IMG/VR virus record: IMGVR_UViG_2690316115_000013
Location: 1-5,976 of that record
DNA: 5,976 bases
Direction: 5' to 3' (one strand)
Source of the DNA: a virus
Lineage: Duplodnaviria > Heunggongvirae > Uroviricota > Caudoviricetes
Positions 3,001 to 5,976 of the stretch are shown here, in pieces. A program made the position numbers. The first letter of the stretch is position 1; every line of letters begins with the position of its first letter.

Positions 3001-5976
3001 CTCCTTTAGTTTCAGAATTCAAATTGTCTTGCCCGCAGGCTTTTCAGCATTGGCATGGCCCGCTGGATAACGGAACTTGACATGTCGAGACGTGTTACCT
3101 CCCTCAGTAGCGCGTCTCTGTTCTTCGTCACCATGTAGATGGTCTCAAACGCAATGTCATACAGCTTGTTCGTGTATGAGGAGTTCAGCTCTTTCATAAT
3201 GGGATACAGGTGTTTGCTGATGTCCTGGGCTTTTTCCATCCAGAGCTGCATGTAGCAAAGGAGGATGATTTCTTCGGCTGTGAATTGTGGCTGAATCTGC
3301 GGCTGCTGTTCGGTTGGTGCTGTTTTTCCCTGGCTGAAATAGCAGTCTTCCAGTTTTTCGAATACCTCCCACGCCCGATCGGTTTCGAGCATTTTTGCGT
3401 GACGGGCTGCGCCGCGTTCTGTCCAGAGGATGAGGGAGCGGGCATTTTTACCAACTAACCCGATTGTTTCGGGTCTGTTCTTAAACTCGCGTAATTCGTT
3501 TTTTTCAATTTTAAAGTAATGCTTTCCGGGCATGAATCGCGTCGTGTTGTTCAGAAAGTTATCAGAAATGTTTTTGATTTTTGTTCCGTAAAGGTGAGCC
3601 AACAGTTCAGTAGTAATTACGGGGATCTGGTTATAGGTAACAGGGGAAAGGTTTTCGACAGAAATTTGAACAGCCATAATGACCTCGCGTTTCGATAATT
3701 TTTACCTCGCCACCGTCAGGTGCTAATCATCGTGGTGGCGAACTGTGCGGGGTTAGCACTACCGGTCGAAACATCCGGCGAGCCTTTCGGCTCCCCCACA
3801 CAGCCCGCCATAAATCGCGAATGTGACTGTGCTTAGCGCATAAAAAAACCGCCAGCGCGGTTATGCACCGTTTCGATATCCGGGGTGCTAATCCCGACGC
3901 CAGGTTTTGCTGGCGCGTGAGGAATATAGCCCCGAACACGCGACGTTGTCAAACTGATGGCATTGCAGATCCCTACGCAATGTAACACTATGTGTTATAC
4001 ATTAATAACGGAACAAAAAATGCGCATTTTTAAAAACGCCTGGTTTGAGCGATTTGCACGCAAAACAAAATATCCGACCAATCACTGCGCGAAATTGTTA
4101 AACAGGCTGATAACGGGCTTATCTCAGCAAACCTGGGTAACGGCGTTATCAAGCAACGTCTGCCACGAGTCGGTGGCGGCAAATCTGGCGGTTATCGCAC
4201 AATCATTTTCTATCGCGTCGGCACAAGGGCCTTTTTCGTATATGCATACGCAAAAAATGAACGTGAAAATATAACCGCTACTGCGGAAAGTGCATTTCGG
4301 AAGGCGGCTCCTCACGTACTCAATCTAACAGATGAACAACTGGCACAACTGATTCTACAGGGTCAGTTTACGGAGGTACCCAATGAGTAAAAATTACCGC
4401 AGTGATGCGCTTGCATCCGTACATGAAATGATGGAATCGCTTCATGATATCGGCGCAGTAACGAAACAGACTATGCGAGAATTCGATGAAACTTGTCTCC
4501 AGCCAGCGCCGGTAATGTCTCCGGAAAGGATCCGTGCACTGCGCGAACGAGAGCATCTGTCTCAACCTGTTTTTGCCAGATACCTCAACGTCAGTAAAAA
4601 CCTGATATCAGACTGGGAACGTGGTGTAAAACGGCCGGGAGGTGCCGCTCTTCGCCTTCTTTCAGTCGTAGAGAAAAACGGGATCCAGGTAATATCATGA
4701 TACTCCAATACAACAAAACCCGCCGAAGCGGGTTTTCATTAGAAGCACCTTTAGTTTTGCTGTTCTATTTTAAGCTTGATAGTTTCATACAAAACAATAG
4801 TTGCGCCTGTTTTACATAATTCCCGGCTGTCATACGCACGAGACCAATAACACAACCAGTTCTCGAGATCTTCTCGAGTATAGGTTTTGCAGGCCAGTCC
4901 CTCTGCCATTTCCACGATTTCATCGCCTGGTGCTGTTAACTCATAGCCATTCAACAACAAGAAGACATAACCAGCCATCATAGCTGTTCGTTTGTTTGCA
5001 TTAGCAAATGGATGATTCTGAATCAGACTTTCAATCAATACTGATGCCAGTACAAACATGTCATTAGTCTGTTCATACCATCGAACCATGCTGGGACGAG
5101 ACTGAGAAGAACTTAAATTATCAACACTCAGCACACTAACAGGTTCATCTGGTGTTTGAAGCTCAATTAAAAGGCGATTAATTTCGGTAAGATCATCAAA
5201 CGAAAGGTAGTGCACTCCTTCAACAATCTCAGCCATAGAGCACAATACCCATCATTACACTTTTGAAAGTTCTTCCATTGCCTTCTCGTAACGAGAAAAA
5301 CCGAAATCGAAAGCATTTTTCACCTGCTCACGATGAGTGCAATTTTCATCGATAGCCGGGCGCGGAGCTGCCACAACGCTTTTATCGCGAGGGGGAATAG
5401 TCAATCGCGGGTGTTTTTTTAGTGCGTAGCTCATTGGGTGTACCCTTACTTCTCCGTCCTGTTCTTTAACAAAAATCAAGTCAATACAAAATTAGTCAGG
5501 CTAATGTTGTTAGCATAGCCTAATACCAATCGTATTCACAACCACAGTAAGTGAAAAAACCCGCCGAAGCGGGTTAAGTGCGGGTGCGTTGAGGATGCCT
5601 GACACATCAGAGGTGGCGAGGGATTTCTCCCTCGCCTGGTCTCTTACTCCTCAGGTTCGTAAGCTGTGAAGACAGCAACCTCCGTCTGACCGGTTCGGAT
5701 TCGTACCTCGCAGAGGTCTTTCCTCGTTACCAGTGCCGTCACTACGACGGTAATACAGATGACGATCAGGGCGACTAACATCGCCTTTTGCTGCTTCATA
5801 GCCTGCTTCTCCTTGCCTTTCGGCGCGTAAGAGGCTAACCTACATGTGTCTAGCATGAAATTGGCCTCAGATTAATGTTAGGCGTCTTGCAGGACGCGTA
5901 ATGTTAACTGGGGCTTTTCTCTGTCTGCCTTACGGTGGCATGCCCGAGGCAGACAGCCTCAAGCACCCGCAGCAAT

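Follow-up and report, generated by a model that had tools for sequence, protein, structure and literature searches.

Toxin-antitoxin cassettes beside the nin region of an Escherichia coli lambdoid prophage: a rare mosaic with a decayed RelE-like toxin

When several toxin-antitoxin (TA) genes lie side by side in a prophage, do they form one working island, or are they cassettes that came together independently? The question is raised by a stretch of 5,976 nucleotides (nt) from a virus of the Caudoviricetes (IMG/VR record IMGVR_UViG_2690316115_000013, positions 1 to 5,976; hereafter the window), in which a sequence-only reading had recognised three TA-type modules within about 2 kb beside the nin region, namely a RelE/ParE-family toxin with a helix-turn-helix (HTH) antitoxin, a small open reading frame (ORF) with a Doc toxin, and hok/mok/sok. 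All three were located, at 3957-5976 (Table 1), although the toxin of the first has been inactivated by a frameshift. The trio is a rare mosaic of ordinary mobile cassettes, neither a conserved core nor a new kind of system, and the best explanation for it, which we regard as probable, is an accessory ("moron") slot in which recombination stacked three independent TA cassettes of known types.

We begin with the module whose state decides how many TA pairs there are. The ORF first taken for the RelE-like toxin (3957-4274) matches only positions 1-34 of the 120 in the Pfam RelE profile PF06296 (19.8 bits, below the cut-off), these being the only ones in frame with the start, and the rest of the domain is found in another frame, where window positions 4052-4387 correspond to profile positions 15-120 (123.8 bits). 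A one-base repair is enough to obtain a full match (1-120, 154.8 bits, E 1.4e-45). Intact homologues of 123 amino acids (aa) are present in O157:H7 PV15-279, in the Stx1c prophage of 2013C-3033 and in MFDS1022581, and alignment to them identifies a 1-bp deletion in a run of five A residues, of which the window retains four (4062-4065). The true start of the gene is the ATG at 4020, not 3957, and frame 0 ends after 84 codons, while in the downstream frame the ORF listing contains no ORF of at least 30 aa initiated by ATG, GTG or TTG. The identical deletion (del43A) occurs in independent assemblies, i.e. ML35, O104:H4 strains, LZHX12, phage PhiR12_3 and several IMG/VR contigs, and prophages that are at least 99% identical carry other lesions: del287C, del287C with a 6-bp deletion, both frameshifts together (O104:H4), and an added IS66 insertion. 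The toxin is broken in every close relative examined. The earlier description was right about the module and its antitoxin, and wrong about the toxin.

Public annotations conceal this pseudogene, since RefSeq/PGAP gives for ML35 a 112-aa "RelE/ParE family toxin", called intact from a non-canonical ATT start (window 4052-4390), and the O104:H4 records are annotated differently, with an 85-aa call. Strong purifying selection had acted on the toxin before it was inactivated, the ratio of non-synonymous to synonymous substitution rates (dN/dS) being 0.025-0.086. In 12 sequences whose mutual identity is at least 99%, we counted about 10 mutational events over the 363 nt of the toxin versus 2 over the 318 nt of the antitoxin, a difference of marginal significance (Fisher p = 0.04); versus the rest of the island (16 events over 1594 nt) the corresponding value was p = 0.018.

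The adjoining antitoxin, in contrast, is intact. It has an HTH_3 domain (32.3 bits, E 1e-7) that forms a C-terminal XRE-type HTH, and it matches phrog_2104 with 147 bits; its closest solved relative is HigA-2 of Vibrio cholerae (35.6 bits, E 8e-8), and the core of the toxin aligns weakly with V. cholerae HigB-2 (E 5e-3). The toxin comes first, its stop codon lying at 4388-4390 and the antitoxin ATG at 4383, and intact homologues have the same layout. All close relatives encode the same antitoxin protein, both polymorphic sites being third-codon positions that leave it unchanged, and its dN/dS is 0.011 relative to the O157 allele. With the toxin broken and the antitoxin protein unchanged, two modules remain intact, the antitoxin is an orphan, and only those two modules can act as TA pairs; as far as can be judged from the genes, the HigB2/HigA2-like module appears effectively reduced to its antitoxin.

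The HigB2-HigA2 system of V. cholerae, in which the toxin is an mRNase of the RelE superfamily and the XRE antitoxin neutralises it through a disordered N-terminal region (PMC5416850), shares with the module studied here the toxin-first order, an 8-nt overlap, an antitoxin of about 105 aa and a C-terminal HTH that aligns to HigA-2. It differs in being distant in sequence, and the toxin of the window belongs to PF06296 and is frameshifted. Orphan antitoxins are abundant in E. coli and have been proposed to serve as anti-addiction factors or regulators (PMC10790755; PMC7354431). Like them, the antitoxin described here is kept intact beside a degraded toxin; unlike them, it allows decay to be seen in progress, as several independent lesions among near-identical prophages. 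Two further observations concern this module. When the window is compared with the O157 allele (4020-4700 versus 6001-6682 of the O157 locus), dS is about 3.2 for the toxin and only 0.38 for the adjoining antitoxin, and such a difference suggests a recombination breakpoint within the RelE/XRE module. In addition, an imperfect palindrome that might serve as operator lies between the divergent isrK/C4/ant promoter and the ATG at 4020.

The second module shows signs of separate arrival. Its Doc protein matches TIGR01550 (DOC_P1) with 122 bits (E 1.4e-35; cut-off 38.65), as well as Fic PF02661 and phrog_577, and its residues 75-83, HPFANANKR, fit the Doc-type motif H-x-F-x-[D/N]-[A/G]-N-K-R. Doc-family proteins are Fic-fold kinases that phosphorylate EF-Tu and thereby arrest translation. 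Among solved structures the closest is PDB 9vzc (E 1e-12, 51 bits), followed at a greater distance by Doc of phage P1 (3k33, E 1e-4, 25 bits), and the gene is under purifying selection (dN/dS 0.13-0.15). In what we call the O157-type arrangement, RelE/XRE lies directly beside hok, a single bidirectional terminator is common to both, and Doc is absent. By blastn, window positions 3981-4734 and 5556-5976 match neighbouring O157 segments whose overlap is precisely the 20-bp hairpin AAAACCCGCCGAAGCGGGTT, leaving an 821-bp cassette that is flanked by 20-bp direct repeats at 4715-4734 and 5556-5575; the repeat is the hok terminator hairpin itself. The hairpin is also found on both sides of the Doc cassette in O6:H16 and O10:H32 prophages, its hok-side copy is degenerate in O103:H2, and the O6:H16 and O103:H2 prophages have no RelE/XRE.

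A separate acquisition of Doc, and its AT-richness relative to the nin genes, had already been suspected from the sequence, and both hold up: the GC content is 0.405 for Doc and 0.413 for the cassette versus 0.46-0.49 for the nin genes (0.479 for the whole window), and the cassette is bracketed by repeats and missing from the O157-type arrangement. An alignment of the regions upstream of six Doc cassettes revealed no conserved operator or promoter, these regions not being conserved across lineages. Upstream of the small gene that accompanies Doc there is an imperfect palindrome, AGGCTAATGTTGTTAGCATAGCCT (5498-5521), which is a candidate operator and is not conserved in more distant Doc cassettes.

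That small gene, of 59 aa, is the least familiar component of the locus. The small ORF noted earlier beside Doc is directly upstream of the Doc relative in 80/80 IMG/VR loci, at an offset of -198/-199 and down to 66% Doc identity, as would be expected of a conserved partner of the Phd-Doc type. The pair also occurs in an Ewingella prophage, within the tail region, on a contig beside dinI/umuDC and in a Salmonella prophage, three contexts that are unrelated. The 59-aa gene is under purifying selection (dN/dS 0.07), and the invariant block of the family alignment is its C-terminal part. An AlphaFold2 model has a disordered N-terminus, a single confident helix at residues 34-57 and no globular domain. 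A homology search retrieved 17 clusters, all enterobacterial, and its family, phrog_2208, is a phage protein family of unknown function. No match was obtained in Pfam (E up to 1) or NCBIfam (E up to 0.1), and nothing significant in the PDB with either the single sequence or a 14-sequence profile, the best hit being a ribosomal protein at E 0.19. Neither these searches nor the model indicate a Phd/YefM antitoxin with an N-terminal DNA-binding domain. Class I Fic antitoxins of the inhibitory-helix type (VbhA/VbhT) carry the inhibitory motif [S/T]-x-x-x-E-[G/N], which by inspection is found neither in the 59-aa sequence nor in the family alignment.

Since a stand-alone C-terminal element of Phd, fused to SUMO, suffices to neutralise a Doc toxin (PMC10440598), the 59-aa protein is, by analogy, most likely a helix-only Doc antitoxin that lacks a DNA-binding domain and would neutralise Doc via its C-terminal helix. 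The pair thus resembles Phd-Doc of P1 in being a prophage-borne, antitoxin-first operon of two genes whose toxin belongs to TIGR01550 and has the Doc-type motif. In contrast to P1, its Doc is only distantly related (25 bits) and 35 aa longer, and its partner is not Phd/YefM, but a protein of 59 aa with no Pfam match, a single helix and no DNA-binding domain.

The third module, hok/mok/sok, is present as had been reported. The Hok protein is a Hok/Gef peptide (Pfam HOK_GEF PF01848, 82.6 bits, E 1.4e-23; phrog_251), an overlapping mok frame starts upstream and ends at the same stop as hok, and the Rfam sok model RF01794 scores 116.9 bits over 5794-5968 (gathering score 59). In the minimum free energy (MFE) fold of the hok mRNA the 5' tac element pairs with the 3' fbi element (z = -8.0), and the Sok region forms a hairpin followed by a U-tail (z = -6.2). 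The antisense Sok gene lies opposite the mok start with a terminator and a promoter, the hexamers of the latter being a consensus match only; a generic sigma-70 scan did not find it. We regard as spurious the weak isrK-like and rsmX-like Rfam matches at 4712-4802 and 5554-5641, which score below gathering (25-31 bits) and fall on the terminator hairpins.

This locus is 91.6% identical in nucleotide sequence, over about 400 bp, to hokW-mokW-sokW of the Stx phages 933W/Sp5, a member of the hok/sok type I family whose prototype is R1 hok/sok, with which it shares a 51-aa Hok within a 70-aa mok ORF, a Sok antisense RNA at the mok start, and the fold-back of the 5' end onto the 3' end. It differs in its position, the junction of the replication and nin genes as opposed to a place near the right end of the 933W map, and in having a hok terminator that doubles as junction for the adjoining cassettes. 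Experiments identified the hokW-sokW locus of Sp5 as a type I TA system, with toxicity of Hok and repression by Sok; mitomycin C removed the sokW RNA and induced HokW with dependence on RecA, and deletion of the locus halved phage release (PMC8621323).

Table 1. Features of the TA locus and of the flanking antirepressor cassettes, in window coordinates
Feature	Position	Strand	Basis or remark
Second C4/Ant cassette	2146-2344 with 1410-2093	-	
First C4/Ant cassette	3731-3929 with 3012-3677	-	
Imperfect palindrome TGTAACACTATGTGTTATACA	3981-4001	+	read from the sequence; candidate operator for the HTH antitoxin
HigB2/RelE-like (PF06296) toxin pseudogene	4020-4390	+	A5 to A4 at 4062-4065; frame-0 ORF stops at 4274
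XRE/HigA2-like antitoxin, intact, 105 aa	4383-4700	+	HTH_3; own GGAGG Shine-Dalgarno
Terminator hairpin AAAACCCGCCGAAGCGGGTTTT	4715-4736	.	common to the convergent XRE and Doc transcripts; distal direct-repeat copy
Doc cassette, 41.3% GC; 821 bp inserted when compared with the O157-type arrangement	4735-5555	-	blastn breakpoints
Doc-family (Fic-fold) toxin, 161 aa	4751-5236	-	TIGR01550; HPFANANKR encoded at 4988-5014
59-aa Doc partner (phrog_2208), predicted antitoxin	5255-5434	-	18 nt upstream of Doc
hok mRNA	5556-5968	-	Rfam, Pfam and fold
hok terminator (proximal direct-repeat copy)	5556-5575	-	
fbi element CCUCAACGCACCC	5582-5594	-	pairs with tac in the MFE fold
hok coding sequence (51-aa Hok)	5644-5799	-	Pfam HOK_GEF
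mok ORF (70 aa), contains hok	5644-5856	-	
Candidate sok promoter	TTGCCT (5813), 17 nt, TAACCT (5836)	+	weak hexamers and sokW homology
sok antisense RNA	5848-5918	+	placed by the sokW annotation in phage 933W (91.6% identity)
5' tac element GGGUGCUUGAGG	5957-5968	-	pairs with fbi

Are the three modules regularly found together? Of 5426 E. coli genomes, 4718 contain a hok-like sequence, 217 the RelE/XRE module and 125 the Doc cassette, and all three modules co-occur in just 34, most of which belong to one closely related lineage. Similarly, in 80 viral contigs with a Doc relative, hok is located about 565 nt upstream in 42, and the trio is present in nine. RelE/XRE and Doc combine with hok in every way, so that alternative arrangements are seen, and in MFDS1022581 all three modules are found intact, on a different prophage backbone. 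In a Salmonella enterica contig (DAAWNC010000008.1, 3496-6009) hok, 59-aa/Doc, ParD/ParE and VapB/VapC are adjacent, downstream of a DUF1627 gene; this suggests that the same slot gathers TA modules in other enterobacterial prophages as well. In E. coli TUM9757 (3909-4667) the same prophage slot has paa, which encodes an AcfC-family adhesin, directly upstream of hok, and therefore also bears virulence cargo. Since the trio is rare and the slot is found with other cargo, be it ParDE/VapBC or paa, the trio is a rare mosaic rather than a conserved core, and the synteny comparison that could have reduced it to a conserved arrangement gave the opposite result.

The position of the slot can be read from the chromosome of the E. 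coli laboratory strain ML35, which is 100% identical to the window (O104:H4 outbreak-lineage genomes are 99.7% identical) and in which the host element is a lambdoid prophage that appears complete and includes lysis and terminase genes. Along the window's minus strand the order in the ML35 prophage is cI/cro/cII, then the genes for a DNA-binding protein that is O-like and an ATPase that is DnaC-like, followed by DUF1627, DUF977, DUF551, a small ORF, hok, the 59-aa ORF, Doc and the convergent XRE/RelE pair, then by an ORF6N antirepressor, ninB, ninE and two more antirepressors, and finally by DUF1364 (YbcO-like, PF07102), rusA, ninH, Q, the lysis genes and terminase. The sequence-only reading had placed the TA genes where replication genes would normally be. 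This is not the case: the O-like and DnaC-like genes are retained in ML35, upstream of hok and beyond the window end, and DUF1627, DUF977 and DUF551 follow them before hok. As the replication genes are found just outside the window, the island is a variable slot at the replication/nin junction and not a substitute for them.

How could such a slot have been filled, and what would it do? We propose that hok/mok/sok, intact, is its resident anchor. The stable folded hok mRNA would be silenced by Sok, a short-lived antisense RNA that prevents mok/hok from being translated; once the locus is no longer transcribed, as when the element is lost, an infecting phage shuts off the host or the prophage is induced, Sok would decay, and Hok would then be made and depolarise the inner membrane. 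The 59-aa ORF and Doc would constitute a self-contained type II cassette with a terminator copy at its end, which may have entered by recombination at the hok terminator hairpin, now the flanking 20-bp direct repeat. A recombination at the terminator between a "hok-T-Doc-T" and a "hok-T-XRE-RelE" prophage (T, terminator) could, we infer, have generated the present order. Doc is expected to arrest translation by phosphorylating EF-Tu, and the C-terminal helix of the 59-aa protein to neutralise it in the manner of the C-terminal element of Phd. The HigB2-like toxin has been lost while its antitoxin/repressor persists as an orphan. The net role is most likely selfish prophage stabilisation, to which abortive infection or an influence on the timing of lysis may be added as a side benefit.

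Several considerations weigh against this account. The direct repeat is a terminator hairpin and could have arrived with the cassette instead of marking a recombination site. The event-based comparison of toxin and antitoxin is marginal, and the identity of the antitoxin among relatives that are themselves at least 99% identical may mirror recent ancestry rather than selection. A truncated toxin might conceivably be made from the ATT start at 4052 that PGAP chose. The 59-aa protein has no detectable homology in Pfam, NCBIfam or the PDB to Phd or to any known antitoxin. More generally, the locus is known from its sequence, and toxicity, neutralisation, autoregulation, stabilisation and defence are all predictions.

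Other explanations should also be considered. The lesion in the RelE-like gene lies in a homopolymer, a typical site of sequencing error, and PGAP still names a toxin coding sequence there, so one may ask whether the frameshift is an artefact, or is bypassed by programmed frameshifting in a functional toxin. We find this hardly credible, given that the same deletion recurs in independent assemblies and that relatives have different inactivating lesions (del287C, the 6-bp deletion, IS66); programmed frameshifting was also rejected as the A-run is not, by inspection, an X-XXY-YYZ slippery heptamer. The downstream frame has no listed ORF of 30 aa or more with a usual start. It is very improbable, too, that the cluster merely represents the conserved core of a known lambdoid phage family and that nothing was acquired separately. 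Such a core would account for the frequency of hok at the replication/nin junction (about 4700/5426 genomes match the hok part) and for a trio that is unchanged in 34 genomes and nine viral contigs, but not for RelE/XRE and Doc being accessory, in every combination with hok, nor for the sharp repeat-flanked edges and lower GC of the Doc cassette, and most genomes with the trio represent a single lineage. It is somewhat less far-fetched, yet still quite unlikely, that the 59-aa ORF is a leader peptide or regulator rather than an antitoxin, and Doc a non-toxic Fic-type modifier. Half of the predicted protein is disordered, without a DNA-binding domain, and it lacks homology to known antitoxins; nevertheless its strict association with Doc in all 80 loci and in unrelated genomic contexts, the purifying selection on it, its invariant C-terminal helix, the Doc-specific Lys/Arg motif HPFANANKR and the precedent for helix-only Doc neutralisers (PMC10440598) all argue otherwise.

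As for function, the sequence-only reading considered prophage stabilisation and, alternatively, three functional TA modules forming an abortive-infection or superinfection-exclusion island that protects the lysogen. Each of the three module types is indeed found, several TA families are known to include systems that defend against phages (R1 hok/sok lowers T4 plating, as cited in PMC8621323), the Salmonella prophage stacks even more modules at the same place (hok, Doc, ParDE and VapBC), and MFDS1022581 has the intact three-module version. We nonetheless consider a dedicated defence island unlikely, since the RelE-like gene is broken in the window as in all close relatives examined, none of the toxins fits a defence model of PADLOC, and the effect measured for hokW-sokW is more phage release on induction, not exclusion (PMC8621323). 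In a scan of PADLOC-DB 2.0.0 neither Hok, nor the RelE-like toxin, nor the 59-aa protein had a match, Doc had only 15-bit partial matches and the XRE protein only generic HTH matches. Better placed, though still the less likely outcome, is a role of hok/sok, and perhaps of Doc, in the lytic cycle, in timing or enhancing lysis and release after induction. This is what the behaviour of Sp5 would suggest, where mitomycin C leads to sokW loss and HokW induction and deletion halves release (PMC8621323), and the hok locus of the window is 91.6% identical to hokW-sokW and belongs to a prophage that seems complete, lysis and terminase genes included. Its place on the map is different, however, hokW being near the end of the 933W genome, the effect in Sp5 is only two-fold, and Doc and the orphan antitoxin are left unexplained.

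A bolder version of the accessory-slot explanation combines three proposals: that the slot downstream of the hok terminator is an as yet undescribed exchange point for TA and defence genes, working via terminator hairpins; that phrog_2208 founds a new, minimal class of Doc antitoxins; and that the orphan HigA2-like antitoxin is kept for anti-addiction, i.e. that it would protect the lysogen or prophage against the intact toxin of sibling prophages. Taken jointly these are rather doubtful. A literature search found no description of the hok-terminator slot or of this trio.

The accessory-slot explanation leaves the current understanding of TA systems unchanged. The components belong to known families, as the PGAP labels already say, and three points are modestly new: Doc's 59-aa partner, a cassette bounded by terminators, and a HigB2-like toxin that can be seen to have decayed repeatedly. 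The locus is a compact natural example of TA cassettes being stacked and swapped in lambdoid accessory slots, of toxin decay with antitoxin persistence, and of a Doc protein with a very small uncharacterised partner, and its analysis corrects both a naive count of three TA modules and PGAP's call of an intact RelE toxin. If the 59-aa protein does neutralise Doc, it could define a new antitoxin family.

Outside the TA genes, two tandem antirepressor control cassettes that resemble immI of P1 were observed on both sides of ninB/ninE, on the minus strand. In both, an ORF6N/P22AR_C antirepressor gene comes after an isrK-like RNA (74-75 bits), c4-a1b1 target sites and an antisense RNA of the C4 type (67-75 bits). 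The first cassette has a near-consensus promoter, TTGACA-18-TATATT (3952 to 3923), that is divergent from the RelE/XRE operon. In O104:H4 2011C-3493 the second cassette and a KilAC antirepressor gene (613-1341) are both missing, and ninE abuts the DUF1364 gene; this makes window positions 613-2344 look like an additional insertion that is particular to the prophage as found in ML35.

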